Assembly (NCBI GenBank): GCA_045545595.1
Contig: JAZQBG010000045.1
Location: 594 to 64,593 of the forward strand
Origin: Bacilli bacterium
GTDB taxonomy: Bacteria; Bacillota_I; Bacilli_A; RF39; UBA660
Direction of reading: 5' to 3'
Length of the DNA stretch: 64,000 nucleotides
This document shows positions 3,770-42,934 of this stretch, in pieces (the stretch's first letter is position 1; each line of letters starts with the position of its first letter). A program made the position numbers and the translations under genes. Under the pieces are notes generated by a model. That model saw only the letters and a list, made by a program, of their open reading frames with translations. It did not search any database and was not told the origin of the DNA.

Positions 3770-4570
3770 TTATTTAAAGAAATCTCTTTTGTTAAATCCA
3801 GCAGTCATAAATCTCCATGCAGCTTTTTTGTTAGTTAACCATTCTATTTTGGCATTATTTTTAGTATTATTTAAAATTCCAGTTACTAAAAACTTTGCAA
3901 CTACATCAGGATAGTCACCAAGTATGTTGTAAACTTTTTTAGTTTTTTCAGATAAATTAATTTTATCCTTATCACCTAATGCTGTTTTAATAAAGTCTGT
4001 TATCATAATTCCAGGACTTAATTTACCTACTATGACCCCAGTATTTCTTTCTTCACTTTCTTTTGCTAAAGCTTCAGTAAAATAAGTGATTGCTCTTTTG
4101 CTAGTTCCATAAATTGAAAGACCTAACATTTTAGAATCATTACTGCCATATCCTTCTATATTATAAATAGCACCACTGTGATTTTTAGACATTTCTTCCA
4201 TAACTAATTTAGAACCCATAATTGCGCCTTTTAAATCAACATCTAATACTAAATCTATCTCTTCTTCTGTTAATTCCCATATTGCTTTATCGGGTTGATT
4301 AACCCCTGCATTGTTAATCCATATGTCAATACTATTAAATTTTTCTTTCGTAAATTTAATTAAGTTCAATATATCTTTTGATTTAGTAACATTACAAACG
4401 CAATATTCTACTTTAGAAGAACTGTCAATTTTATCAAGTTTCTTTTTTGCATTGTCTAATTTCTCTTCATTTAAATCGCTTATTACTACATTCAAATTAT
4501 TTTGTTTGAAAAGCTTTGCCATTTCAAATCCAAGACCTCTAGCGCTTCCTGTTATTACTACTGTTTTCAT
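3770..4570 (-). CDS. short-chain dehydrogenase/reductase (SDR) family oxidoreductase
   Basis: N-terminal Rossmann motif VVITGSARGLG and NNAG motif. Catalytic YxxxK-type region (YGTSK). Confidence 0.75.
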   Translation of the reverse strand: MKTVVITGSARGLGFEMAKLFKQNNLNVVISDLNEEKLDNAKKKLDKIDSSSKVEYCVCNVTKSKDILNLIKFTKEKFNSIDIWINNAGVNQPDKAIWELTEEEIDLVLDVDLKGAIMGSKLVMEEMSKNHSGAIYNIEGYGSNDSKMLGLSIYGTSKRAITYFTEALAKESEERNTGVIVGKLSPGIMITDFIKTALGDKDKINLSEKTKKVYNILGDYPDVVAKFLVTGILNNTKNNAKIEWLTNKKAAWRFMTAGFNKRDFFK

Positions 4571-4655
4571 ATATACCTCCTACATGTTAGTTATTAACTT
4601 AATTATATCAAAATAAAAAGCAGATTTGTATAAAACAAATCCACTTTCATTATTT

Positions 4656-7283
4656 TTATTCAGTTCTTAAAGCAATTACTGGGTCTTTTTTACTTGCAAG
4701 TCTTGATGGAATTAAACCACCTATAGTTGTTAATAAGATACTTATTAAAACTAAGATTATACCAGCAACAGCTGGAACACGTGTTACTATTTTAACTCCT
4801 GTCATCGAGTAAATAATACTATTAATTGGAAGAGTTAATAGTACAGTAACAGCAATACCTAAAACACCAGCGATGAAACCTACTATTAATGTTTCAGCAT
4901 TGAATATTCTTGAAACATCTTTTTTAGATACACCTATTGCTCTTAGGATACCTATTTCTTTAGTTCTTTCTAATACAGAAATGTAAGTTATTATTCCTAT
5001 CATAATAGAAGATACTACTAATGATATAGCAACAAACGCTATTAGTACATAACTGATAATATCTACTATATTACTTACGGAACTAATCATTGTTCCAACA
5101 ATATCAGTATAAGTTATTTTATTTTCTTCTTCTGTTTGTTTACTATTGTATTCTTCAATTGCTGCTTCTATATTTTCTTTTGATTCAAAATCTTTTGGAT
5201 AAATACTAATTGTTGATGGAGCATTTAAATCAATTGCCCCTAATTTTATCATGTTATTTTCATATGTTGCATTTGCATTTTCTGTATATGTTTGCATCAA
5301 TTCAGCAATTTGTTCATTATTAAGCATACTTAATTGCATTTTTTGTTCTGGGGATAATGCGTTAAAATCAAATTTACTTTCTTCTCCATCTTTAGAGAAC
5401 GCTAATCCTGAGAATACATTTATTTCTTCTTTTTCTCTTTGCTCTTTAACTATTTCTGCTTCATTTGATTTATTAATTATATGTTCTTTTAATTCTTTTG
5501 TATAACCAATCCCACCATTCATACCCATGGCAACCGATTGTTCATTTTGTCTAATGATACCTACTACTTTGATTTCTTCTGCATTATCTACTTTATTTTT
5601 TAAATATGATTCATCATCACTTTTGTCAATCCAGAATCCATTTTCTTTAGTATAGTAATCTGAATTTAGTAATACTTTATATCTTAAATCTAACAATTCT
5701 TCATAAGTATATGAAGTTTCTTCACTTTTTTCTACTTTTTCACCTTTTTGGATTTTGTCAATTTGTACTTTTAATTCTTTTTGGTCTTTTAATCCTAATG
5801 TGTATAAAGTATAATCACTAATTTCATTATTTTCTCCAACAATTAAAACTACTTCATTATAATTCTCAGGCCATGAACCAGCCAATAAGTCATATTGTGA
5901 TTTTAATAGTTTTTCATTGTCAAGCATTTCTATCCAAGCATTCATATTACTTGCCATGCTCATTGAACTATTCGCTACAGACATTATTCCAGTACTTTGA
6001 GTTTCTAACATACCACTCATACCTAATGAATCAAGTACAGTGCTTGGATTAACCCTAACTACACCATTTTCAGTATCTGACTTATATAAGTTAAGATTTA
6101 AATCATAACCATATTGAATAGCGTTACTATTATTTTTGATATCATTATCTGTCTCTTCAATATATTTTTTTAAATTAGTTAAATTATTTGTTTCAACTTG
6201 GTTTGATAATATTGATATCATTTGATCCATTATATCTATTGAATAGACTTTATCATCTTCTCTTTCTTTTTCAATAGTTACTTCACCCATCATAGTTTCC
6301 ATCATGCTTGTCATATCTATTGTAGAGTCTTCAATAGTAATTGGATATGATGATAAGGTGTCTTCTTCTATTTTATCTATATAACTTTGTACACCAGTTG
6401 ATATAGCAAGGATAAGCGCTATACCTATAATTCCAATACTACCCGCAAAAGCAGTTAATATTGTTCTTCCTTTTTTAGTTAATAAGTTATTTAAACTAAG
6501 TTGTAATGCAGTTAGATAATTCATTGAAGTTTTCTTGAAACTTGCTTTTTCCATTTTCTTTTTCTTATCTTTTTTTTCTTTGTTTTCTTTTATAGGATTA
6601 GAATCATCAATTAACTGTCCATCTAGTATTTTTATAATTCTGCTAGAATATTTTTCAGCAAGTTCACTATTATGAGTAACCATTATAATTAATTTATCTT
6701 TTGATATTTTCTTCAATATTTCCATTACTTGAACACTTGTCTTAGTATCTAGCGCCCCTGTTGGTTCATCAGCTAAGATAATATCTGGATTATTAACTAA
6801 AGCACGAGCGATTGCTACTCTTTGCATTTGTCCACCAGATAGTTGATTAGGTTTTTTATTTATTTGATTTTTAAGTCCAACACTATCAAGAGCTTTAATG
6901 GCTCTTTCTCTTCTTTCGGTTTTAGAAACACCTGATATTGTTAAGGCTAATTCTACATTTGAAAGTACTGTTTGATGACTTATTAAGTTGTAACTTTGGA
7001 ATACAAATCCAACAGAATAATTTCTATATGAATCCCAATCCCTATCTTTAAATTCTTTAGTAGATTTACCATTAATAATTAAGTTTCCACTAGTGTATCT
7101 ATCTAGTCCACCTATTATATTTAATAATGTTGTTTTACCACAACCACTTTGACCTAATATTGAAACAAACTCTGATTTTCTAAATTTTAAATCTATACCT
7201 TTTAAGGCTTCAACTTTTTCAGTATCTGTTATGTAAGTCTTTTTTATGTTTTTAAGTTCTAACATTTTATCACCTTTCTTCAT
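4656..7283 (-). CDS. MacB-type fused ABC transporter (ATPase + FtsX-like permease)
   Basis: Walker [13 protein letters not shown] signature [15 protein letters not shown], Walker [12 protein letters not shown]. Large extracytoplasmic domain and C-terminal FtsX/MacB 4-TM permease. 875 aa. Confidence 0.8.
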
Positions 7284-20338: not shown

Positions 20339-20970
20339 TTAATTTTTTCTAATTGTTAATTTCATAGTCTTAAATAATATTTTTATGTCTAATAATAGAT
20401 TGTTATTTTTAACATAACTATAATCTAATTTCAAACGTTCAACAAACAATCTGTTACTTTTTTGATTTACTTGCCAAATACCAGTTATACCAGGTTTACA
20501 AGTTATTATGTGTTTATAATATTTTTTCATATCATTTTTTTCACGTTCTAAATATGGTCTTGGTCCAACCAAGCTCATATTTCCAATTAGTACATTTATA
20601 AATTGTGGAAATTCATCAATGTTAGTTTTTCTAATAAACTTTCCGATTTTTGTAATTCTAGGATCGTCATGTAATTTTTTATATTTGCTATATTTTCTTC
20701 AGACAGTTGTTTATTTTCGTTTAAAATTGTTTCTAATCTTTCATCGGCGTCAACTACCATTGATCTATATTTGTATATCTTGAATATTTTGCCATTTTTC
20801 CCTATTCTCTTTTGAGAGTAAAAAATAGGTCCCTTTTCTCTTAAAATTAATTTAGCAATTATAATAGATATAGTAATTGGTATTAATATTACAGGACCTA
20901 TTAAACCACCTATTATATCGATAATTCTTTTTATAAATTTTTCTAGATTTTTTACTACACATTTTGTCAT
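20339..20970 (-). pseudogene. polyprenyl glycosylphosphotransferase (bacterial sugar transferase, EPS/capsule initiating enzyme) split by frameshift
   Basis: ORF 20596..20970 carries the N-terminal TM segment and KYRSMVVDADERLE. ORF 20339..20578 carries the C-terminal MSLVGPRPYL. The conserved DPRITKIGKFIRKTNIDEFPQFINVLIGN motif is readable only in a third frame. The shift occurs at a T6/A6 homopolymer around 20684. Confidence 0.6.
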
Positions 20971-21138: not shown

Positions 21139-22377
21139 TTAGTCCCTTTGAAAAATATCTCGTGTATAAACTTTATCACGTACGTCATCTAAACATGAAT
21201 TATAGTGATTTGCAAGAATTGTATTACTTCTCTTTTTAAATTCTTCTAAATCATTTATAACTTCGTTACCAAAAAATGTAGTTCCATTTTCTAATGTTGG
21301 TTCATAAATAATTACAGTTGCGCCTTTTTCTTTAATAAATCTCATAACATCTTGTATGCTGCTTTCTCGGAAGTTATCAGAATTATTTTTCATTGTCAAG
21401 CGATATATCCCTATTACACACAAATTTTCCTGTTCACTATAATTATAAAAACCAGATATTTTTAAAATACGCTCTGCAATGAAATCTTTTCTAGTTTTAT
21501 TTGAATCTACTATTGCTTCAATCAGGTTTTCTGGGACATCTTCATAATTTGCCAATAGTTGTTTTGTATCCTTAGGAAGACAATATCCGCCATATCCGAA
21601 ACTTGGATTATTGTAATGGAACCCTATTCGAGAATCTAAACATACCCCTTCAATAATCTTTTGTGTATCCAATCCCTTTATTTCTGCATAAGTATCTAAT
21701 TCATTGAAATAAGAAACACGAAGAGCAAGATATGTATTTGAAAATAACTCAACTGCTTCTGCCTCGGTAAAACCCATAATCAAAGTATCTATATCTTTTT
21801 TGATAGCACTTTCTTTTAAGATTTTTTCGAAAACGTGTGATTTTTCTACTAATCTTTCATCATCCAAATCTGTTCCGACAATTATGCGACTAGGATATAG
21901 ATTGTCATATAGTGCTTTTGTTTCACGTAGGAATTCTGGACTAAAAATTATATTCTTACTTCCAGTCTTCTCCCTGATTGTTTTTGTGTATCCAACTGGA
22001 ACTGTAGATTTAATTACCATAGTTGCATCTGGTGCATATTCCATTACTTGATGAACAACATTTTCCACTGCCAGTGTGTCAAAATAATTTTTATCTTCAT
22101 CATAATTTGTAGGAGTTGCAATTATTACAAAATCCGCATCAGTATATGCATCTTTTGCATTCATAGTAGCTATCAAATTTAATTCTTTTTCTCTAAAATA
22201 CTTTTCAATATAATCATCTTGAATTGGAGACTTTCTATTGTTGATCATATTTACTTTTTCTGGAATAATATCTACTATATATACTTGATTTTTCATAGCT
22301 AAAAGTGTGGCAATACTTAGACCTACATATCCTGCTCCTGCAACTGCTATTTTTAATTTGTTAGTATTATTTTTCAT
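21139..22377 (-). CDS. ugd: UDP-glucose 6-dehydrogenase (nucleotide-sugar dehydrogenase family)
   Basis: N-terminal NAD-binding motif [13 protein letters not shown]. Catalytic Cys motif [21 protein letters not shown] region. Confidence 0.8.
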
Positions 22378-22497: not shown

Positions 22498-23664
22498 TTA
22501 TCTCTGTTTCTTTCGTATAATCATTCGACTAACCACAAATACCTTATCTACTAAGCGGGACAAAACAAGTGGATCTGACTCATTATTTATGTGTGAAGTC
22601 ACAACTATTATATAATCGTATGTTTCTTTAAATCTACTAAAACACTCAGTAATTGAACTAGAATTAAATAAATTGTTTTTTTCTGTATCAGTACCTTTAG
22701 AAATAAAACATAAATTATCAATGTTAGTATTAGTCATATACTTTTTATAACCATCTTTATTATCACTTAGTAAATTAGAAAAACCATTTTTATTATTAGT
22801 GTTAAACACTTCATGTAATTTTCCTGTTTTAAAATCACAATCAATAATAAGTATCTTTTTACCTATATCCGAAAAAGCTAAAGCTAATTTGCTAGCAATA
22901 AAATTTTTACCTTCATTCTTTTTTGAACTAGTAATCATTATAATTTTAGAATTATCTAAACTACATTTACTTTCTATATTGGTTCTAAGAATTCTTATGC
23001 TTTCAGTCACATTCATATCATATTCACGTGAAGTTTTTTTATAGTCATTTATATATCCTATTACTGGTATATTAAATTTGTTTTCCAAGTTATTAATAGT
23101 TCGTATTTTTTCATCAATATAGAATATTACAAAAATAATGCCTAATCCTACAATACATCCTATTCCAAAACAAAATATTAAAATTTTACTAACACTAACG
23201 TCAGTAGTTTCAAGAGTGAAAGTTGCTTCTTCTAAAATAATAATGTTTCTATTATTATAATTGTTTTTAACTTCTTCCATTAAATAAGAAGCAATTTTAT
23301 TAGCGATATTTATTGAATTTTTACTGTCTATATCTTTTACCTCTATCTTAACTAAAAAACTAGCTTCTTCTGTAATAACGGTTATGTTATTTGATAATTT
23401 AACAGTATTCATGTTTAAGCCTAAATCGCTTATTACTTTAGTTAAAGTTTTGTTTGACTTGGCTGTTTCTCTGCAGAAAGAAAATATTTCAGCAAGTGAT
23501 GGCGCTACATCTTCAGTTTTGTTGATTCCTTCGTTAACAGGTACAAATAATTTAGCATTTGTTTTGTAATAAATGTTTTGGTTGTTTTTACAATATATAC
23601 CGCCAAAAATAGTACCTAGCACACAACACAAAAGTACAATCCAAATTCTTTTTACAAAAAACAT
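22498..23664 (-). CDS. fused Wzz-like chain-length determinant / BY-kinase-like P-loop ATPase; C-terminus probably frameshifted; no Tyr cluster
   Basis: N-terminal Wzz-type TM plus periplasmic domain. Second TM, then ParA/MinD-like Walker A ITSSKKNEGKN and Walker B ILIIDCD. The conserved C-terminal motif ALENINIDIDGIIVNKI is encoded in a different frame just downstream of the annotated stop (22384-22450). Confidence 0.5.
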   Translation of the reverse strand: MFFVKRIWIVLLCCVLGTIFGGIYCKNNQNIYYKTNAKLFVPVNEGINKTEDVAPSLAEIFSFCRETAKSNKTLTKVISDLGLNMNTVKLSNNITVITEEASFLVKIEVKDIDSKNSINIANKIASYLMEEVKNNYNNRNIIILEEATFTLETTDVSVSKILIFCFGIGCIVGLGIIFVIFYIDEKIRTINNLENKFNIPVIGYINDYKKTSREYDMNVTESIRILRTNIESKCSLDNSKIIMITSSKKNEGKNFIASKLALAFSDIGKKILIIDCDFKTGKLHEVFNTNNKNGFSNLLSDNKDGYKKYMTNTNIDNLCFISKGTDTEKNNLFNSSSITECFSRFKETYDYIIVVTSHINNESDPLVLSRLVDKVFVVSRMIIRKKQR

Positions 23665-23694
23665 AAATAAATCTTATATCTAATAGCATTTTAA

Positions 23695-23725
23695 TTATAA
23701 AAAAATAAGAGTTTTCACTCTTATT
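23695..23725 (-). terminator. rho-independent terminator
   Basis: aataagagt/actcttatt 9-bp stem with T-run on minus strand. Confidence 0.5.
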
Positions 23726-23847
23726 ATTTATAACTTGTGATGTAAATTTCAAATATTAATTTAATATTTTTTATAACATCTATTATTAAATTTAACACTA
23801 TAATCCCTCTTTACGGATAGATATTCTACCATAAAAAGGAATATATG

Positions 23848-24303
23848 TCAAAATTTGGTATTAATGATAGACTTTAAAACCAAGGATTTGTATCTTTCTG
23901 CAGTTTCTGGACGAGTAAAAAGATTATTCTTTTTATATACAATCATCATATTATTTTCATCTTTGCAATATTTTATTAATTTATAATCTACATCATTTGT
24001 AACATTTAAAAAATAGAATTTTTCAAGTTTTTTGCTAATAATGGATATTCTATCAACACCATATCTATTATTTTCAAAATAATAATAGTAGGAATTATTT
24101 TCATGTATGTCCAAATTTTCTGGAATATCAAATTCTATAGAATCATAACTGGCATTTTTAACACTAATATATAAATCATTTATATGTTGTCTAAATAGTT
24201 CTAAATTTTCATAGGTTTTAATTATTTCTTTGTTTTTTTCTAGAAAGCCAACCAAATTTCTAATACTTTTTCTTTTTTCAAAATCACTTAGTTCATTTTT
24301 CAT
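23848..24303 (-). CDS. hypothetical protein (immediately 3' of ssrA)
   Basis: 151-aa ORF with no recognisable motif. Confidence 0.3.
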   Translation of the reverse strand: MKNELSDFEKRKSIRNLVGFLEKNKEIIKTYENLELFRQHINDLYISVKNASYDSIEFDIPENLDIHENNSYYYYFENNRYGVDRISIISKKLEKFYFLNVTNDVDYKLIKYCKDENNMMIVYKKNNLFTRPETAERYKSLVLKSIINTKF

Positions 24304-24400
24304 TATATTTTCTCCTTCTCTAGACTATTAAATATATGTAGGAATATAATAAAAAATTCACAAAATAAAAAAACTATTTTTCAAGAGATTAAATCATAAT

Positions 24401-24761
24401 TGGTGGAGATGAGGGGTAGCGAACCCCTGTCCAAAAATAAATCATTAGTACATCTACAAGCTTAGTCAATTTTTAAATTTCCTAATAGATAAAACAAATT
24501 GACAAACCTATCTATTAGTAAGTCTTTAAATATTCGTTATTCTAGCAAGACAATAGAATAATATAGTTCACTAAATATGAGCCCCTAATATTCCCCGTGA
24601 ACAAAGGAATAAAAGAAGCTTACACCAACCCTAAATTAATTAGGCAAAAGAAGGTGCAAAGTTATAATTATTTTTTCCGTTTATTTTTCGGTTTTGGAAT
24701 TAACGCATACCTGCGACTTGCAGTAGTTAACTCATTATTTCTGTCGAATCAATTCATCCCC
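24401..24761 (-). ncRNA. ssrA: tmRNA (transfer-messenger RNA, SsrA)
   Basis: Minus-strand 5' end GGGGAUGAAUUGAUUCGACAG and 3' end GGACAGGGGUUCGCUACCCCUCAUCUCCACCA. Acceptor stem pairs with G3:U wobble (alanine identity element). T-arm GGUUCGCUACC and encoded CCA. Internal tag frame ends ...KNNYNFAPSFA then TAA. Downstream of smpB as expected. Confidence 0.9.
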
Positions 24762-24813
24762 ATGTACACACATTATATCATATTTTCACTAAAAAGTAAA
24801 AACCCTTCATAAA

Positions 24814-24842
24814 GTTTATGAAGGGTTTTATAGTTGAATCTT
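24814..24842 (-). terminator. rho-independent terminator between pilin-like gene and ssrA
   Basis: 10-bp perfect stem aacccttcat/atgaagggtt. Confidence 0.6.
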
Positions 24843-24843
24843 A

Positions 24844-26727
24844 TTATTCCTCAGCAATTCTAGCATAAATCCATTCTACAAATCCATCTCTAACTCCTTG
24901 TGACATTGTTGATGAAATTGTATTTGAACCATACAATGGCCATTTTTTAGACAATGTTATAATAATATCAACTTCATAATTTTCTTTTGTGAATTTGTAA
25001 ACTAGGTTACTAAATGCGCTTTTTGTTCCACTACTGCTACTTAAGACTGTATTTTTAAATGAAGTGAATCGGTTTTTATACGAACGTGTTGATAATCCTG
25101 TGTAATAATTCTCAAAAGCATCTGAAATTGATAGACTACTGTTTTGACTCAAATTATAGTATATTACCCATCCATCAGTATCAGCATACATATCATCCAT
25201 ATTAAAACTAGTATTACTATTACCTAACAAATTCATTGTTGCCTTTTTATATCCTGCAACTGTTTTATCGGTTACTGTTGATAATAAATTATCAACCATG
25301 AATGTTTGAAGATCTCCTGCCCAACTTGCTACTGAGTCAACAGTTATTTGATTAAGTAGATCATAAGGAGAACTAGCTGTTTGATACATTCTGGTATCAA
25401 TTACTGCAGCCATATGTATTAAGTCTATAGTATCATCATTTATTGTAAAACTTTTTTTATTATTAAAATATGTTTTTAAATTTAATGCGTTTGATTGAAC
25501 GTATTCACGAAATGAATAATCAGTTCTTGAAACCTTATCCCAATTTGAACCAGTATATGAAAATGTTCGAATATAATTAAATACTAACCACTTGCTGTAT
25601 GAGGGTTTATAATTTGCAGTTGTATAAGTGGCAGTTGTTGCATAGTTTTTCGCTAATAATTCTAGTCGTGCTATGTTTTTTAATAATGTTGCTACATCTC
25701 TCGGATATTTTAGTTTTTCTGTATATAGTATATTACTTCCATAATTATTTCTTATATTATTATCACCATCATACATTATTATTTCATATTTGTTATCAGC
25801 ATTTATTCTTAACTCTCCACTACCCTTTACATTTGAATTCATAGATATAGAGTTATCATTAATAATATTACCATATTGATCGATTTTGTTTATTGTTCCA
25901 TCATTAAATTCAAAATAAACCTCTGATGTGATATTGTTATTTTTAATATATTTTTTAGCAACAGCTTTTATTTCTTGATATAACACTATAATATTATCAT
26001 CATAACCACTATTTACATCATCTTCTTTTTCATAATTTCCGTTACTATCAATTATTACTACTTCATTGTTTGATAATTCTATTGAGTACTTAAAAGATAA
26101 TGATTCATCTAATATAATGTTTCCGTTTAATGATTTATTTGCGTTAGGATTTATTAATTTATACACTTCTATTTTTGAACCGTCATTTAAATATTCATAT
26201 ATTATTTCACCCTCAAATATAAATCTTTTGCTACCAGTAATTTCATTGTAGGTAGAATACATATCTATAAATAGAGCTAATTCGTTATATAATGACAATA
26301 CATCTCTCGACTCAATTAATGATTTAGTTACTATATTATTTGAATTATAGTCTTTAATTGCATCTATATTTTCACCCTCTAATAATACTGATATCTCTTT
26401 TTGGGGATTAATTTTAATTATACAAAAACTACAAGATTCACCTTTATATTTAAAATAATTTGTTTCTGTTTTTGTACCATCACTATTAATCATGTATTCA
26501 GTATCATTTTCGATTACATAAAATTGTGTTTTCTCTGGTTCCATTTCATTTAACTTAACATCTTCTATAACACTTTTTGCAAGTATTTTTGCGTTGTTAA
26601 CTACAATATCATTTTTTGATTTAGAAATAGCGTTACCAATAAATACATAGCTTATAACACTAATTATAGCTAATATTGTTATTGCAACTAATAACTCTAT
26701 TAGCGTAAACCCTTTTTCTTCTTTCAT
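24844..26727 (-). CDS. large (627 aa) protein with type IV prepilin N-terminal cleavage/methylation domain
   Basis: N-terminus MKEEKGFTLIELLVAITILAIISVISYVF is a class III prepilin signal peptide (G-F-T-L-I-E, then a hydrophobic helix). Remainder is N/Y/S-rich with no other recognisable domain. Confidence 0.6.
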   Translation of the reverse strand: MKEEKGFTLIELLVAITILAIISVISYVFIGNAISKSKNDIVVNNAKILAKSVIEDVKLNEMEPEKTQFYVIENDTEYMINSDGTKTETNYFKYKGESCSFCIIKINPQKEISVLLEGENIDAIKDYNSNNIVTKSLIESRDVLSLYNELALFIDMYSTYNEITGSKRFIFEGEIIYEYLNDGSKIEVYKLINPNANKSLNGNIILDESLSFKYSIELSNNEVVIIDSNGNYEKEDDVNSGYDDNIIVLYQEIKAVAKKYIKNNNITSEVYFEFNDGTINKIDQYGNIINDNSISMNSNVKGSGELRINADNKYEIIMYDGDNNIRNNYGSNILYTEKLKYPRDVATLLKNIARLELLAKNYATTATYTTANYKPSYSKWLVFNYIRTFSYTGSNWDKVSRTDYSFREYVQSNALNLKTYFNNKKSFTINDDTIDLIHMAAVIDTRMYQTASSPYDLLNQITVDSVASWAGDLQTFMVDNLLSTVTDKTVAGYKKATMNLLGNSNTSFNMDDMYADTDGWVIYYNLSQNSSLSISDAFENYYTGLSTRSYKNRFTSFKNTVLSSSSGTKSAFSNLVYKFTKENYEVDIIITLSKKWPLYGSNTISSTMSQGVRDGFVEWIYARIAEE

Positions 26728-26742
26728 AACATCACTGTCCTA

Positions 26743-27177
26743 TTAATATCTACAGATTTTATTTAGTTCTCTTTCTTGTTCTCTTTTTTTGATAGATTCT
26801 CTTTTGTCGTATAACTTCTTACCTTTTCCGATACCAAGCAATACTTTTGCTTTGCCCCTAGTTATATATACCTTAACAGGGAAAAGTGCATAACCCTCAA
26901 TATCTAACTTATTTTTAATCTTTAATATTTCTTTTTTATGAAGCAACAATTTTCTAGTTCTTGTTTCTTCATGATTAAATCTATTACCTTCTTTATATGG
27001 TGCGATATACATATTTAAAAGAAAAGCTTCACCATTTTTTATAATGGCATAACTATCTTTTAAGTTTGCGCTTCCGTTTCTTATAGATTTAATCTCTGTA
27101 CCTTGTAAAACAATACCAGCCTCATATTCTTCATCAATAAAATAATCAAATCTTGCTTTTTTATTTAATATCTCCAT
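26743..27177 (-). CDS. smpB: SsrA-binding protein SmpB
   Basis: [29 protein letters not shown] matches SmpB N-terminus. C-terminal basic tail. Confidence 0.9.
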
Positions 27178-27180
27178 GTT

Positions 27181-28341
27181 CTATCCCTCCAAGCTAACAA
27201 TTGGAATTGTATTATCATATTGTCTTATAATATTTGAAAATTTTTCATAATAACTCTTATAATTGTATAATTCGTTATCTGTTAACATTCTATATGGAAT
27301 AACTTTGTAGTTAGACCAATTTCTATAATAAGTATAAATTAATTCAGTATTTAAATTACTAAGTGTAATATTTGATGTTTGATCTTCTTCCACAGTTTTG
27401 TTGATATCTACTGAAACTAGTGCGCCAGTTAATCTTTCAACTCCAATTTGTGCGGAGATAAAATTTCCTAACGAATAGATTACTAATGTATTTCCAACAT
27501 ATTCAATAGGTTGTAATACATGTGGATGAGTTCCAATTATAATATCAACACCTAAATCTGATAGATAACGTGCTACTCTTTTTTGTTCGTCACTTGCACT
27601 ATGCCAATATTCATTTCCCCAATGCATAGATATTAATATAACATCAACTTGGTCTCTTACTCTTTCGATATCTTCTTTAACTTTTTCGTCTGAGTAGGTT
27701 ACTGCATAATAATTTTTACCACCTGGGTGAAGTAGTCCATTAGTACTAGTAGTATAAGCAAGTAATGTATATTTAATATTATTTTTTTCCATTATTCTAG
27801 GAGTAATTCTATCTTCTTCACTCTCATAAGAACCCGCAGTTAATACTCCTTCTTTTTGTTTCCAATAATTTAATGAGTGAAGTACTCCTTTTTCCCCTTT
27901 ATCAAGTGTATGATTACTAGCTAAGTTTACAAGATTAAATCCCATATTAACCATACAATCTCCTATTTCATCTGGAGAATTAAACAATGGATAAGAAGAC
28001 ATTCCTAAATCTTTACCACCTATTATTGTTTCTTGATTATAGAATGCTAAATCATAGTTTTGGACAATTGGTGCGATATAAGTCATTTGTTTAGTAAAGT
28101 CATAATTATTATTACCAAGGTGAGCATCTCCATAAACAGTTGTGTGGATAAGTGCATCACCCGTCATAATTAAACTTAATTTATAATTTTTAGGATATAT
28201 CTCTTTAGGTTCTTCTACCTTTTCCTCTACTTCTTTTTTAGGTTCTTCTTTTTCATTATTGTTTTTAACTATATACACATTAGTAGTAACAATTCCTATT
28301 GCAAAAAATATTAATAAAAGATTTTTAAATATTCTTCTCAT
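27181..28341 (-). CDS. CapA/PGA_cap-family metallophosphoesterase-like protein
   Basis: Signal-anchor. LIMTGDALIHTTVY and NLASNHTLDKG motifs typical of the CapA family. Confidence 0.55.
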   Translation of the reverse strand: MRRIFKNLLLIFFAIGIVTTNVYIVKNNNEKEEPKKEVEEKVEEPKEIYPKNYKLSLIMTGDALIHTTVYGDAHLGNNNYDFTKQMTYIAPIVQNYDLAFYNQETIIGGKDLGMSSYPLFNSPDEIGDCMVNMGFNLVNLASNHTLDKGEKGVLHSLNYWKQKEGVLTAGSYESEEDRITPRIMEKNNIKYTLLAYTTSTNGLLHPGGKNYYAVTYSDEKVKEDIERVRDQVDVILISMHWGNEYWHSASDEQKRVARYLSDLGVDIIIGTHPHVLQPIEYVGNTLVIYSLGNFISAQIGVERLTGALVSVDINKTVEEDQTSNITLSNLNTELIYTYYRNWSNYKVIPYRMLTDNELYNYKSYYEKFSNIIRQYDNTIPIVSLEG

Positions 28342-30451
28342 TTCTAGTCAACACCTTTTTCTTAACAATTTCAAAATCAATTGTTCTTTGTTCTGTAGAT
28401 GCTGCAATAACTTTTACATCAACTTCATCACCAAGCTTGTACATTTTTCCTGTTCTTTTACCAATTAATGTTTCAGTTACTTCATCATAGTTATAATAAT
28501 CATCTTTCATATCTGATATATGGACTAATCCTTCTATCATATTACTTAATTGAACGAACATACCAAAACTCATTATTGAAGAAATCATACCTGTATATTC
28601 TTCTCCAATATGATCTTGCATATATTCAGCCATTTTTAAATCATCTACTTCACGTTCAGCATCAATACTAGCTCTTTCCCTTTCAGAACTATGTTCTGAA
28701 ATATACATAAGCGCTTGATTCCAGTAAGCAATTTCTCTATTGTTCATTTCTCCATGTAATATTTGTTTTAATATAGTATGTAATGTTAAGTCTGGGTATC
28801 TTCTAATTGGTGAAGTAAAGTGTGAATAAATCTTACTAGCAAGTCCATAATGTCCTTTATTTTCTTTTGAATAAATAGCTTTTTTCATACATCTAAGTAA
28901 CTTACTAGAAAGTATTTTGTATTCTTTTTTGTCACTTAATTCTTCTAACATACGTTGTATATGTTTAGGGTGTAAATCTGTTCTTTTACCAGTTAATTTA
29001 TATCCTAGTAAACTAACATATTTTAAGAACTCACTTATTTTTCCTTCTTCAGGATACTCATGGATACGATATATTGATGGTAAATCCATATAGAAAACAT
29101 GAGACGCTACAGTTTCATTTGTAACTATCATAAAGTTTTCAATAATATTTTCACCAACACCACGTTCTCTTACTTTAACATCTATACATTTTCCAGTTTC
29201 ATCAGTTATGATTTTTGCTTCATCTTGATCAAAGTTCAAATATCCTCTATTATTCATGTTTTTTCTAAGAATATCTGAACATTCTAACATCAAACGTAGT
29301 GTATCAACATATTCCTCATAGCCTTCTGGAATAATATTTTCTTCTAAGATTTTATTAACATTTTTATAAGTCATTTGTTTTCTAGATTTAATTACACTTT
29401 CAAATAAGTCATAATTAACCACTTTACCAGTTTTATCAATTTCCATGATACATGATAGTGCAAGTCTATCCACATCAGGATTTAAAGAACAAATCCCATT
29501 AGATAAATAGTGAGGTAACATCGGAATAACAGTGTCAGCTAAATATGAACTTGTTCCTCTATCTCTAGCAGATTTATCTAATTCACTATTATGAGTTACA
29601 TAGTTACTAACATCTGCGATATGTACGCCTAAAAGATAATTACCATTTTCTAATTTTTCCAAACTAATTGCGTCATCAATATCTTTAGTATCATCACCAT
29701 CTATAGTAAATATCATTTTATCTCTTAAGTCATGATCCAGTCTTTTATTTACTTCTTCTTCTGAAACTTCACTAGGAATGTTTTTTAATTCTTCCATAGC
29801 TTCTTCTGGAAAGTCCATAACTATTCCATACTTGTATGCGATTGTTTTGATGTCTATTCTAGGATCATCTTTATGTCCTAAAATTTCTACAAGATTTCCT
29901 CTATAGTAGTTATTTTTAATTTTACTACCTACATTAACTGCAACCTTGTGCCCATTAACAGCTTCTTTGCACTCATCTTTAGGTATTTCTACTATTATGT
30001 TTAATTTATTATCATCTAATTTTACATAACCTTTATTATCTTCATAGTAAAACTCACCCACTAATTGGTTTAGTTCTCTTCTAAGTATTCTTAGAATTTT
30101 TCCTTCTTTTTTAAGTGCGTTTTTATCCATTAGTTCTAGAATAACAACATCACCATTTAATGCACCATTAATGTTTTTCTCATGAACATAAATATCGCCT
30201 TCACTAGTTCTAACAAATCCAAATCCTTTTTTATTTGTTTCAAGTTTTCCTTGAAGTAAATGACAATACGGAAAATACATGAATTTATCTCTTTTAGTTC
30301 TGTACACTGTTCCTTCATTTTCTAAATCATTAAGTGTCTTAATAACTTCTTGAATATCTTCGCTAGTTTTTATTTCTAATCTATCAAGAATATCTGTTAG
30401 TTCGTATGCTGTTTCTTCAGCTTTTAAAATTTCTAATAATTGTTCTTTCAT
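28325..30451 (-). CDS. rnr: ribonuclease R
   Basis: 708 aa. N-terminal HTH/cold-shock domains, RNB catalytic domain, and C-terminal S1 domain (MFVQLSNMIEGLVHISDM). Confidence 0.9.
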   Translation of the reverse strand: MKEQLLEILKAEETAYELTDILDRLEIKTSEDIQEVIKTLNDLENEGTVYRTKRDKFMYFPYCHLLQGKLETNKKGFGFVRTSEGDIYVHEKNINGALNGDVVILELMDKNALKKEGKILRILRRELNQLVGEFYYEDNKGYVKLDDNKLNIIVEIPKDECKEAVNGHKVAVNVGSKIKNNYYRGNLVEILGHKDDPRIDIKTIAYKYGIVMDFPEEAMEELKNIPSEVSEEEVNKRLDHDLRDKMIFTIDGDDTKDIDDAISLEKLENGNYLLGVHIADVSNYVTHNSELDKSARDRGTSSYLADTVIPMLPHYLSNGICSLNPDVDRLALSCIMEIDKTGKVVNYDLFESVIKSRKQMTYKNVNKILEENIIPEGYEEYVDTLRLMLECSDILRKNMNNRGYLNFDQDEAKIITDETGKCIDVKVRERGVGENIIENFMIVTNETVASHVFYMDLPSIYRIHEYPEEGKISEFLKYVSLLGYKLTGKRTDLHPKHIQRMLEELSDKKEYKILSSKLLRCMKKAIYSKENKGHYGLASKIYSHFTSPIRRYPDLTLHTILKQILHGEMNNREIAYWNQALMYISEHSSERERASIDAEREVDDLKMAEYMQDHIGEEYTGMISSIMSFGMFVQLSNMIEGLVHISDMKDDYYNYDEVTETLIGKRTGKMYKLGDEVDVKVIAASTEQRTIDFEIVKKKVLTRNEKNI

Positions 30452-31059: not shown

Positions 31060-31416
31060 TTATGAACAAGTTGATGAAGATACTAATTCATATGTTACTT
31101 TACTATCTGCAATAGTAACTTTAACTTTATCTGTCAATGCAGTATTATCTCTTGGATCAATAATTGTAGTTCCATCCAAAAACTTATCATCGATATCATT
31201 TATTAGCTTATCAAGAGAAATACATTTTCCTTCATCTTTATGTTTTATATAATATTTACTTGCCGCACCTATTATTTGGTCTTCTAATATTTGATATTGT
31301 TGATTTTTACCCTTTTCGATAAACCTAATACTAGTAGGTACTGCAATAATAGTAATTAGAACCATTATTGTAACTGCAGACAATACTTCTACAAGCGTAA
31401 AACCCTTACTATTCAT
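31060..31416 (-). CDS. type IV pilin-like protein (prepilin-type N-terminal methylation domain)
   Basis: MNSKGFTLVEVLSAVTIMVLITIIAVP class III prepilin signal. 118 aa. Confidence 0.65.
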   Translation of the reverse strand: MNSKGFTLVEVLSAVTIMVLITIIAVPTSIRFIEKGKNQQYQILEDQIIGAASKYYIKHKDEGKCISLDKLINDIDDKFLDGTTIIDPRDNTALTDKVKVTIADSKVTYELVSSSTCS

Positions 31417-35391: not shown

Positions 35392-36003
35392 CTATTTATT
35401 TTTATTTTTTTGTTCAACTTTTTTTAATTTTTTCTTTTTAGTGTTTTTTTGTGATGTCAATTTAACAATTTTAACGATGTCATATGATATAATCGCTAAA
35501 CATGGTATTAAAACTGCAATTAACCATCCGCCTTTTGAAGCTAGGAAGAATTGTAATCTACCTAATTGTGGTATTCTCATTACAACTTTACCAACAATAT
35601 TTTCTTTGATGGTTAATGCATCATCTTCTACGTTATTAGCATCCCCTCTTGTTCTAAAGATACCTTCTTTAGCATCTATTATTTCTACAATTCTATGTGT
35701 TATAGTTGTACCATAAAATCTACTATCATTAGAGTAGAAGGTAATAACATCTCCAACCTTTAGTTCAGTAGGTTCAGTCCTTTTGGAAACTATAACGTCA
35801 TATACATGAATATTAGGTTCCATACTTCCACTTATTATTACATACGCCCCAAATAGTGGTTTTGCCACACCACCTTTAGATTGTTGTATTTTTACATCCA
35901 CAACATATATTGTAAAAACAAGTCCAATTATAATTAATATTACAAGGCATGAATAGGAAATAATTGTAGATATTATTTTACTTATGTCTTTAAATTTTTT
36001 CAT
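35392..36003 (-). CDS. sipW: signal peptidase I, SipW-type (S26B)
   Basis: Catalytic-region motif VISGSMEPNIHVYDVIV is characteristic of SipW/archaeal-type SPase I. N-terminal TM plus C-terminal TM with K-rich tail. Confidence 0.75.
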   Translation of the reverse strand: MKKFKDISKIISTIISYSCLVILIIIGLVFTIYVVDVKIQQSKGGVAKPLFGAYVIISGSMEPNIHVYDVIVSKRTEPTELKVGDVITFYSNDSRFYGTTITHRIVEIIDAKEGIFRTRGDANNVEDDALTIKENIVGKVVMRIPQLGRLQFFLASKGGWLIAVLIPCLAIISYDIVKIVKLTSQKNTKKKKLKKVEQKNKNK

Positions 36004-36018
36004 ACTCTATTTTCCTTT

Positions 36019-36774
36019 CTAATCGTCATCTCTGTCATGGTCACGATCATCGTCATCGCAATCATGTCTATCGTCGTCATCATCACAATCGATATCTTCA
36101 TATACATTTAATACAATTCTGCCTGCATAAAATTTATTTTGATCTTCGTTTCCGACATTTTTATCAATCCAAAGTCTAAGTGCGTATGAATTCACTTTTG
36201 ATGACCTTAACTTTCCACTTAGTATTGTTTCATTTTTTAAATCAGATACAAATCCTTGTTTAACTATTTTATTATTATCTGTATTTATTAGAGAAAATTT
36301 AACTTTTGTATTGCTTATTCTTGTTTTACCAACAATTTCTTCTACATTATGTAATTCACTATCAGGTACATTTACTAATTTTAGAGTATAGTTAAGTGAA
36401 TATGTACCATTGTTATTTAACTTAAATTTAAAAGGTTTTAAAGTCATCGCCTTTTCATCACTCATTGGAGCGGTATTATATAATCTTATAGTTGTATCTG
36501 TTTGTTCAACTAATTCCAATGACATCTCACCCACTTCAACTTTATGATGGGGGATTTTGTTTTGGTTATATACAGTTGATATAGTAAAAGCGCTAGAAAT
36601 TATCAACATTAATAGTGTTATTGAGTATAATAGCAATAACAATAGCGATTTTTTTGTTTTTTCTTTTTCAACAAAATATTCACTATCAACTCCACATTCT
36701 GGACATTTATAATCTTCTGGTAATTTTCTAAATTCTACTTCGAATTTACAATTTTGACACTGAAAGATCTTCAT
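36019..36774 (-). CDS. membrane protein with N-terminal zinc-ribbon and C-terminal poly-Asp/Cys/His tail
   Basis: CQNCKF...CPECG zinc-ribbon, one TM helix, about 170-aa extracytoplasmic domain. C-terminus DIDCDDDDDRHDCDDDDRDHDRDDD. Confidence 0.5.
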   Translation of the reverse strand: MKIFQCQNCKFEVEFRKLPEDYKCPECGVDSEYFVEKEKTKKSLLLLLLYSITLLMLIISSAFTISTVYNQNKIPHHKVEVGEMSLELVEQTDTTIRLYNTAPMSDEKAMTLKPFKFKLNNNGTYSLNYTLKLVNVPDSELHNVEEIVGKTRISNTKVKFSLINTDNNKIVKQGFVSDLKNETILSGKLRSSKVNSYALRLWIDKNVGNEDQNKFYAGRIVLNVYEDIDCDDDDDRHDCDDDDRDHDRDDD

Positions 36775-36872
36775 GGCAACTCCTCCTATGATAAAATAAT
36801 TATATAATAAAAACTTGCATTATTCAATGCAAGTTTATTATTTTTTTTCGTTTTCAAACTTCAGTGTAAATA

Positions 36873-37463
36873 CTATTGGATAGCATCAACAGTAAGTTTA
36901 GCAGTAATATTTAAACCTTGTAATTGATCTTGTTTAGCACTTGTAGTATCTTCAATCCAAATATATAATGTATAAGTGTCAGTATTTGTACCAACAGGGA
37001 TTGAAATTTTATCAACGTTTATAACCTCATTAGTTAAGTTACCTGATGTAAAATCACCAGTGTTAACTTCACCTTCAGCATCATATAAAGCCCATTTTAC
37101 ATCTGCTAAGCTTCCACCTTCTTTAGTTGTGTCTAAATCGTCTGCAGTTAATCCAGTAGTAGTTAATTTGATATCATATTTACCAGTAGTTATAGTTGTT
37201 CCATCAGTAACAACAGTTAATCCTACTTTTGCGATATCTGCATCTTCATCAGCAGTTTCAGCATCTACCCATGTTGTTGGTTTAATACTAACATTATCAG
37301 CTACTGTTGATGTAGCAGAAACTTTTAATTCACCAGTTTTAACATTTTGTGTTACTGTTCCACCTGTCGCACTGAAATATGCGAATGTAGCACCTACTGT
37401 AGCAACGATTAATACAGCGATAGCAATAACAGTTAATAATACTTTATTTGCATTCCTTTCCAT
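36873..37463 (-). CDS. TasA/CalY (camelysin)-like secreted protein with SipW-cognate signal peptide
   Basis: LLTVIAIAVLIVATVGATFAYFSATGGTVTQNVKTGELKV matches the SipW-cognate signal class (GxTFAYFSD-like) and TasA/CalY N-terminal region. 196 aa, like CalY. Confidence 0.6.
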   Translation of the reverse strand: MERNANKVLLTVIAIAVLIVATVGATFAYFSATGGTVTQNVKTGELKVSATSTVADNVSIKPTTWVDAETADEDADIAKVGLTVVTDGTTITTGKYDIKLTTTGLTADDLDTTKEGGSLADVKWALYDAEGEVNTGDFTSGNLTNEVINVDKISIPVGTNTDTYTLYIWIEDTTSAKQDQLQGLNITAKLTVDAIQ

Positions 37464-42433: not shown

Positions 42434-42934
42434 TTAGTTTAAATAGTAATCTTTTACTCCTTCAGTTGAGTAGTTATCACATTTTAAATAAGGAGTAAAT
42501 TCTATACTTTCTCCATTTTTCTTAGCTTCTACATAACCATTACAATTATCTTTTGACATTTCTGTTTTTAAATTAGAATCTACTTCTAAAAGATGTGGAT
42601 AATCAACAATTGTTAGATTATTACTTATGTTATTTTTATATGCTTCTGCAATATATTTAATTGCATCATTAGTTAATTTCGCTTCTAAATCTTTATAATT
42701 AATTGAATCCGTAGTACTACTTTCATTATTATTAGTATTTGTTGTTACCTCTTGAGTGGCGTTAACATCTGTTTTTTCTTCAACCTTAGCTTTTTGTTCA
42801 TTGACTTTTAAATTTTCTTTTAACCCGTTTGATAGTCTTATTATCATGACTGAAGAAAATAATAGACAAATTATGATAAGTGATACTATAAGCAAGAAAT
42901 CAGATAACCCCCAACCTCTATTATTTAATTTCAA
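42434..42934 (-). CDS. hypothetical membrane-anchored protein with degenerate pilin-like N-terminus, in the position normally held by ybxF/L7Ae between rpoC and rpsL
   Basis: N-terminus NNRGWGLSDFLLIVSLIIICLL resembles a class III prepilin signal (G-W-G-L-S-D) followed by a hydrophobic helix. S/T/N-rich middle. Confidence 0.4.
   Translation of the reverse strand: MKLNNRGWGLSDFLLIVSLIIICLLFSSVMIIRLSNGLKENLKVNEQKAKVEEKTDVNATQEVTTNTNNNESSTTDSINYKDLEAKLTNDAIKYIAEAYKNNISNNLTIVDYPHLLEVDSNLKTEMSKDNCNGYVEAKKNGESIEFTPYLKCDNYSTEGVKDYYLN

Follow-up and report, generated by a model that had tools for sequence, protein, structure and literature searches.

TelC (SIR_1489) from Streptococcus intermedius is a lipid II phosphatase toxin that is exported as an LXG protein by a type VII secretion system (T7SSb; PDB 5UKH; PMC5555719). 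TelC is active only from outside the membrane, and it cuts lipid II at the undecaprenyl-phosphate ester; its aspartate-rich motif binds calcium, and mutating this motif abolishes toxicity (PMC5555719). In the TelC families, an xD..H motif lies in helix H2, the catalytic aspartate lies in helix H4, and a second aspartate six residues further on pairs with a conserved arginine (PMC12419801). Modular type IV pilins are an established class as well: a survey from 2021 described lectin, vWA, and peptidase modules (Raynaud et al., PMC8179133). Here we describe a gene from a Bacilli bacterium (lineage RF39) whose 627-amino-acid product very probably combines a modular type IV prepilin with a C-terminal domain that is homologous to TelC. 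The gene is at 24844..26727 on the minus strand (stop codon at 24844-24846) of the stretch of DNA that we analyzed, which is 64 kb long (positions 594 to 64,593 of contig JAZQBG010000045.1; "the window"). We propose that its product is a modular minor type IV pilin that presents a TelC-family enzyme, and we put the probability of this at about 0.7.

The 627-residue protein

The protein starts with MKEEKG followed by FTLIELLVAITILAIISVISYVFIG, or in other words, with a short basic leader that ends in glycine, then phenylalanine at +1, glutamate at +5, and about 20 hydrophobic residues. This class III signal (InterPro class IPR012902) is recognized by Pfam's N_methyl (PF07963; 35.5 bits with a cut-off of 21.2, E = 6e-9) and by TIGR02532 (32.5 bits with a cut-off of 16.3). 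The best sub-threshold matches in NCBIfam were to ComGC, ComGE, ComGF, and Gsp minor pseudopilins. A search for GFxxxE in all six frames of the 64 kb matched this open reading frame (ORF) and just one other real ORF. From the signal, prepilin peptidase is predicted to cut after Gly6, which would remove the leader (26710..26727) and leave a mature protein that begins with FTLIE and has glutamate at position 5. In type IV pilins, Glu5 is required for filament assembly, not for anchoring. The complete signal (Gly-1/Phe+1/Glu+5) is kept in all 10 of the pilin-type homologs.

We modeled the protein with AlphaFold2 (AF2), using 11 homologs (predicted local distance difference test, or pLDDT, of 83.6; predicted template modeling score, or pTM, of 0.75). 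The model has an alpha-1 helix of about 50 residues, three modules that each have a helix and a sheet of 4–5 strands, and an all-helical domain at residues 341-627, approximately. The long alpha-1 helix is predicted to pack against a beta sheet, as expected for the pilin fold. Alpha-1 (residues 7-59, 26551..26709; helical from 9 to 59 in the model) has a hydrophobic part (alpha1N) followed by an amphipathic part, and the profile of this region matched alpha-1 of PilE1, PilA, and MshA in the PDB. It is followed by pilin-like beta module 1 (residues 60-137, 26317..26550). In the model and in hhalign comparisons, we then find pilin-like module 2 (residues 138-240, 26008..26316), with a 20-residue helix and a beta sheet, and pilin-like module 3 (residues 241-340, 25708..26007), which is also found on other carriers (see below). 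The three tandem modules are repeats that are homologous to one another; for modules 2 and 3, hhalign gave a probability of 96.8% (E = 2.5e-10). Module 1 also contains a nearly invariant CxxC (C99 and C102, at about 26422..26433). At least 90% of the 11 homologs in the alignment keep this pair, which may form a disulfide or bind a metal.

The C-terminal part of the protein (residues 341-627, 24847..25707) is an all-helical domain of the TelC family (prok-TelC in the Lipocone superfamily; Pfam PF27189, "YkzU"). PF27189 was assigned by the precomputed annotation of an identical protein (P0001). An earlier note on this DNA, which was made from the sequence alone, stated that the long body had no recognizable domain. 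We now describe this body as three pilin-like repeats and a TelC-family domain. Our own scans with Pfam and NCBIfam found nothing in the body of the protein beyond the N-terminal motif; the Pfam scan was blank because PF27189 is absent from the copy of Pfam that we used for the window's proteins. Searching the literature for "YkzU" gave nothing of relevance.

To compare the domain to proteins of known structure, we used hmmsearch with a profile of 25 diverse C-terminal domains. TelC was the only significant match among PDB sequences (5ukh_A, E = 5.4e-13, 52.3 bits), and the runner-up had E = 0.085. The match comprises three collinear stretches, which hold TelC's "DFTH", "NLAGWEGD", and "EDDYKADLDSVNI", and these stretches carry the D..H, GW[AE]GD, and DDxxADxD motifs. 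In the 627-residue protein, D435-L-I-H438 (25414..25425), corresponding to the xD..H signature that Lipocone proteins have in helix H2, aligns to DFTH; W469-A-G-D472 (25312..25323) aligns to GWEGD; and the aspartate-rich motif D512-MYA-D516-T-D518 (25174..25194) aligns to DDYKADLD. D518 is six residues past D512, as in the described TelC families.

These residues are also the ones that the family conserves. In alignments of 63-110 divergent members, H438, W469, G471, D472, and D512 are invariant (for H438, across 110 diverse members), and D516, D518, and R553 are nearly so. The 627-residue protein and all of its orthologs retain every family-invariant motif residue, and the active-site signature of TelC is complete: D435/H438, D512, D518 (at +6), and R553. 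The alignment to TelC would place the signature residues in helices H2 and H4. Given this signature, we think that the domain is probably, if by no means certainly, an active enzyme. When we compared the full-length AF2 model to known structures with Foldseek, TelC was found with a probability of 0.92, which is consistent with a TelC-like, all-helical, two-lobed fold for the modeled domain. The top Foldseek matches in the PDB were sliding clamps, with TM-scores under 0.15; we rejected these as artifacts of the repeated topology of the three beta modules.

Genomic context, relatives, and other carriers

The minus strand of the window (28.5% GC) has a conserved Firmicute block, murD-eno-secG-rnr-(capA-like)-smpB-ssrA. 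Our gene lies between smpB (26743..27177; Pfam SmpB, E = 6e-58) and the tmRNA gene ssrA (24401..24761; found by ARAGORN and by Rfam RF00023 with 142.5 bits), whose tag peptide is GKNNYNFAPSFA. The ORF analysis, Pfam, ARAGORN, and Rfam thus confirm what the earlier note had seen, namely, a 627-residue ORF with a class III signal between smpB and ssrA. The note's description of the gene as flanked by its own strong terminator is correct for the 3' side only. There, between the stop codon and the promoter region of ssrA, a hairpin of 14 pairs followed by a T-run (24829..24799 as read along the minus strand) resembles an intrinsic terminator, and it is the sole site of this kind in 23600..28500. 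On the upstream side, only 15 nt separate the stop codon of smpB from the ATG of our gene, and there is no terminator between them. A promoter scan was uninformative (38 sites versus 37.9 expected).

We found the same gene order in the metagenome-assembled genome "Bacillota bacterium SIG205" (locus L010): femAB-murD-eno-pilin-secG-rnr-capA-smpB, then the ortholog of our gene, then ssrA and a 150-residue ORF. The tag peptide of the tmRNA is the same as the window's. The flanking proteins are 86-94% identical between the two genomes and the tmRNAs are 96% identical, while the 627-residue protein is just 56% identical overall. Across its parts, identity rises from 39% for alpha-1 to 45%, 47%, and 58% for modules 1, 2, and 3, and to 67% for the TelC-like domain. 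This comparison shows that at least two related genomes have inherited the gene in the chromosome, between smpB and ssrA, and that it has diverged much more than its neighbors have. The gene is found in only about 10 protein clusters and 3 GTDB species. Scanning with the family alignment gave only 3 loci in genome contigs (a set that does not include the window's own genome) and no confirmed match in metagenome contigs.

Other orthologs, at 40-62% identity, lie alone beside RNase J, M16 peptidases/RecG, argS, or an HD-domain gene, so the gene does not belong to any conserved pilus operon. The earlier note had proposed that finding the gene between smpB and ssrA in relatives, as part of such an operon, would argue against its being the cargo of a genomic island. 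The position is indeed shared, with L010, and the operon is not there.

The island itself, a mobile element that would have integrated at ssrA and brought in both our gene and the 151-residue gene just 3' of ssrA (23848..24303), now seems so improbable that we regard it as largely refuted. It does have some appeal: ssrA is a classic attachment site for islands, the synteny with L010 stops right past the 151-residue gene, and the exopolysaccharide (EPS) block beyond contains a split sugar-transferase gene. However, islands insert at the 3' end of ssrA, and our gene is on the 5' side. L010 has the same arrangement, with 56% protein identity inside a block that is about 90% identical. The tmRNA 3' end, whose duplication would mark an att site, is not repeated anywhere in the 64-kb window, and the region lacks any integrase or recombinase gene. 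The GC content of the gene region (24-30%) is like that of the flanks, without any shift, and a PHROG search gave no match beyond the pilin N-terminus, which is to say, no phage family. We reject the island for these reasons. As for the 151-residue gene, which the earlier note took as a sign of an island, L010 has a counterpart in the same place (12402..12854), 45% identical. It has no relative in Pfam, NCBIfam, PHROG, or the PDB; it has no transmembrane (TM) segment and no signal, and it looks cytoplasmic.

The window also contains a second prepilin gene, which the earlier note missed. It lies between eno and secG (31060..31416, minus strand) and encodes 118 residues, beginning with MNSKG and then FTLVE; the 627-residue protein is not the only pilin-like protein of this genome. 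The L010 protein is 66% identical to it and is much longer (3995..5722, 575 residues): it has the same pilin module and, in addition, a BspA-like module of about 460 residues, with about 20 leucine-rich repeats of the form DLSNFDTSNVT..M..MF.GCSSLTSL. The 118-residue pilin is probably a partner of the 627-residue pilin. Because this lineage has at least two pilins that are able to bear large modules, a working type IV filament system is likely to be encoded elsewhere in the genome. We also considered a 166-residue ORF between rpoC and rpsL (42434..42934, minus strand), with a TTG start, an N-terminal hydrophobic segment, and no known family, as a third pilin, and rejected it, as it has no similarity to pilins.

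Most proteins with the TelC-like domain are not pilins. In an exhaustive profile search, we found the domain in 839 clusters (at 50% identity) with E ≤ 1e-3, including 57 with E ≤ 1e-30. It is nearly always C-terminal, and most of the carriers are of other kinds (RHS, lectin, vWA, CBM, or fimbrillin). Three RHS proteins (P0017, P0020, and P0024), whose cores end in the usual DPxGL region, have this domain at their tips, and RHS-type relatives match the profile with E values of 1e-40 to 1e-52. At one of the RHS-type loci (L014), the gene directly downstream encodes a 260-residue protein with two TM segments, which is a candidate immunity protein; this is the layout that is expected for a toxin and its immunity gene. 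In Sec-exported or lipoprotein-type surface proteins, the domain is joined to RicinB (14 of 63), TSP3 (13), or vWA (8), and further carrier modules are Big_2, CBM2/96, choline-binding modules, SH3_3, dockerin, and Peptidase_C1. A full-length search with the 627-residue protein gave 11 matches, all of them with PF27189. Two kinds of type IV prepilin carry the domain, one with three modules (P0001-P0010 and P0012) and a different one that is Cys-rich (P0016 and the N-terminus of P0010). Module 3 accompanies the TelC-like domain onto other N-terminal carriers (P0013, P0015, and P0016), so a single cassette of module 3 and TelC is seen on several different carriers. As the carriers are so diverse, including RHS proteins, surface proteins, fimbrillins, and prepilins, the domain behaves like an effector module that acts outside the cell and is shuffled among proteins. 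The wall-binding and glycan-binding partners and the RHS tips point to action on the envelopes of other cells. And since the domain also occurs outside of pilus biology, its combination with a pilin module matches the definition of a modular pilin.

Some of the other carriers are worth describing. Two fimbrillin-type lipoproteins with the domain, P0018 and P0133, match Mfa_like_1 (30.9 and 30.3 bits, with a cut-off of 27); this is a parallel fusion to the subunit of an unrelated type of pilus. Five proteins with the domain (P0097, P0104, P0123, P0135, and P0151) start with K-G-[IV]-S-L-I-V-L-[IV]-I-T-I, which is pilin-like and lacks Glu5; Pfam's N_methyl does not recognize the N-termini of P0097, P0123, or P0151. 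The Cys-rich prepilin P0016 is the one exception to the pattern of lone genes, as it is encoded in a cluster (L015, 8638..12638) with a 160-residue prepilin two genes upstream, a 176-residue TM protein, and further multi-TM proteins, among them one of 121 residues whose gene overlaps the start codon of P0016 and one of 130 residues downstream. These TM proteins are candidates for immunity or accessory proteins, and they are absent from the window; we found no homologs there of the membrane proteins of either L014 or L015.

As for the rest of the window, the EPS block lies 3' of ssrA, and the synteny with L010 stops just short of it. The block includes a Wzz/kinase gene (22498..23664), UDP-glucose dehydrogenase (21139..22377), and the Bac_transf sugar transferase (20339..20970, minus strand), which is split into ORFs of 124 and 79 residues, probably by a frameshift or because it is a pseudogene. 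At 35392..37463 (minus strand), a signal peptidase I of the SipW/archaeal type (TIGR02228, 102 bits) adjoins two unassigned exported proteins. One of these (36019..36774) combines a zinc ribbon with a TM segment and a poly-aspartate tail, and the other (36873..37463) has GATFAYFSATGG right past its TM segment, which recalls the signals of SipW-dependent, TasA-type proteins. We considered a TasA-like type of carrier for the domain (P0011/P0019, along with this ORF as a protein that resembles TasA or other SipW substrates), but neither the carrier nor the signal had support from hidden Markov models. Finally, at 13354..16878, a gene of the Abi_2 family (abortive-infection-like) overlaps an ORF on the opposite strand that resembles zinc phospholipase C, and next to these are an Amidase_3 gene and a protein with collagen triple-helix repeats. 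This may be a variable or defense-related patch.

Proposed role and alternatives

We propose that the precursor of the 627-residue protein inserts into the membrane and that a prepilin peptidase, encoded elsewhere in the genome, would cut it after Gly6. The subunit would be incorporated at the start of assembly, so that it would form the tip of a filament of the Com type or of type IV; for modular pilins, it has been argued that the bulky subunit ends up at the tip (PMC8179133). The filament would push the enzyme module through the producer's own wall, and on the outside of a membrane, the module would do as TelC does and hydrolyze lipid II-type precursors at their polyprenyl-(pyro)phosphate linkage. 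The most probable outcome would be contact-dependent damage to neighboring Gram-positive cells, and the main alternative is that the module would act on the producer's own lipid-linked precursors.

On which cells the enzyme would act, our preference is tentative: we give slightly less than even odds to a role that is directed outward, in which neighbors would be antagonized or lysed. It is favored by the RHS and wall-binding relatives, by the strict retention of Glu5 and of the complete signal, by the long stalk, and by the gene's fast evolution and patchy distribution. A self-directed enzyme of the envelope seems unlikely to us, although it has several observations behind it. The TelC-like module would then act on the cell's own undecaprenyl-linked intermediates, for peptidoglycan, teichoic acid, or capsule, to recycle the carrier lipid or to tune wall synthesis, and the pilin-like N-terminus would be a mere anchor or stalk, without a filament or a target cell. 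Such a role would fit with the lack of an immunity-like neighbor in five genomic contexts, with the absence of pilus machinery from the window, with the gene's place in the rnr-capA-smpB housekeeping block and its probable co-transcription with that block, with the simple Sec-type members P0034 and P0123, whose genes stand alone next to housekeeping or amidase genes, and with the housekeeping roles that have been proposed for related families such as VanZ (PMC12419801). Also, TelC is toxic to its own producer if it is exported by Sec (PMC5555719). On the other hand, a core envelope function would not be expected to have 56% identity where the neighbors have about 90%, or to be limited to about 10 clusters and 3 GTDB species. 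An anchor would not need the Glu5 that serves assembly, yet the Gly-1/Phe+1/Glu+5 signal is intact in 10 of 10 pilin-type homologs. A stalk of 300 residues and three modules keeps the enzyme off the membrane, and the same genomes have a second modular pilin with adhesin-like repeats.

The earlier note had suggested a pseudopilin-anchored adhesin or enzyme. A prepilin with a large non-pilin body is what we find, and of the two functions, the enzyme is nearer to the evidence. That the TelC-like module is catalytically dead, so that the protein is purely an adhesin with a binding domain at the tip of a pilus, comparable to the vWA or lectin modules of PilB and PilC from Streptococcus sanguinis, is very unlikely in our view: the known modular pilins are mostly adhesins (PMC8179133) and the metazoan relatives of TelC are mostly predicted to be inactive (PMC12419801), but all of the family-invariant residues that align with TelC's aspartate-rich and histidine motifs are intact here and in all of the orthologs.

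Several results weigh against a pilin that presents an enzyme to other cells, including the absence of immunity genes and the lone Sec-type members just mentioned. We scanned most ORFs of at least 110 residues in the window with Pfam (the unscanned ones are in blocks of ribosomal protein genes) and, in agreement with the earlier note, found no prepilin peptidase, assembly ATPase, or platform gene; nor are there pilus machinery genes within 10 kb of the gene in any relative that we examined. Directly downstream of our gene, instead of an immunity gene, are ssrA and the 151-residue protein, and there is no immunity-like membrane protein or lipoprotein gene beside it in the window or at L010, L004, L008, or L009. 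The gene and smpB likely share one transcript. The AF2 model rests on a shallow alignment of 11 sequences only, and when the C-terminal domain was modeled separately (pLDDT of 69), Foldseek found no match for it in the PDB. Lastly, the domain is about 20% identical to TelC, and its putative activity and substrate are predicted from homology at that distance.

Even so, we favor a modular minor pilin with a TelC-family enzyme. A bolder form of this proposal is that a monoderm gut bacterium uses a type IV filament, possibly of the Com type, as a spear whose tip enzyme cleaves lipid II, for contact-dependent killing or lysis. We consider this doubtful. If it is true, this would be a route to killing or lysis that is distinct from T7SS/LXG, and it might be coupled to DNA uptake, as pilus-borne fratricide. 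Spatial separation, with the enzyme held beyond the wall on its three-module stalk, would take the place of an adjacent immunity protein in sparing the producer. Together with the Mfa-like fimbrillin fusions, a TelC at the tip of a fiber would be a recurrent strategy across phyla.

More broadly, if the domain is active, then type IV filaments would gain an enzymatic, wall-attacking function, and our proposal would give polymorphic-toxin domains a new delivery route in Gram-positive gut bacteria. The lack of an adjacent immunity gene raises the question of how the producer avoids intoxicating itself; an alternative answer is that this branch of the TelC family may have a physiological role in the metabolism of carrier lipids. 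In any case, effector modules can go unnoticed in genes that are labeled only as [quoted passage not shown].

Comparison with known systems

To our knowledge, all experimental work on lipid II phosphatases of the TelC type concerns T7SS/LXG effectors, and the modular pilins that have been characterized are adhesins or DNA binders. The domain of the 627-residue protein belongs to the prok-TelC family of the Lipocone superfamily (PMC12419801). The survey of this superfamily lists carriers from type IV, VI, VII, IX, and I secretion systems (T4SS, T6SS, T7SS, T9SS, and T1SS) as well as MuF, GbpC, and TPM, and the word "pilin" occurs 0 times in its text (PMC12419801). No relevant paper came up in our full-text literature search for TelC in combination with pilin. 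A TelC-family domain on a type IV pilin thus seems to be a new pairing of known parts; Pfam already models the domain, and the library that we had searched was incomplete.

Compared to TelC itself, the carrier is a prepilin signal with three pilin-like modules instead of LXG, and the aligned domains share about 20% identity. Other components of the TelC system are missing as well: T7SS genes, WXG partners, and a neighboring gene for TipC-like immunity. The C-terminal family is shared with polymorphic toxins, RHS proteins (such as P0017, P0020, and P0024) among them, but our gene has neither an RHS core nor a following membrane gene like that of L014, and it lacks the immunity gene of a classical polymorphic toxin (Zhang et al. 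2012).

The closest architectural parallels are PilB (with a vWA module) and PilC (with a lectin module), the modular type IV pilins of Streptococcus sanguinis (PMC8179133, PMC9934059). Like these, the 627-residue protein has an N-terminal class III signal and pilin module, a C-terminal module that is not from pili, a monoderm host, and an expected location at the tip. Unlike these, its extra module is a predicted enzyme or toxin rather than an adhesin, its pilin module is triplicated, and its gene lies among housekeeping genes instead of in a pil operon. The large minor pilins and pseudopilins that are located at tips, such as GspK, CofB, TcpB, and ComZ, have extra domains that are structural or for binding, and they are encoded in machinery operons; none of them has a TelC-like domain.

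There is also a functional parallel with the colicin M-class bacteriocins, which degrade lipid II. Like them, the 627-residue protein would be modular and would deliver an enzyme that cleaves lipid II to the outer surface of the target's membrane. The catalytic folds are unrelated, however, and colicins enter diderms by uptake that depends on a receptor and on Ton, with no pilin involved.

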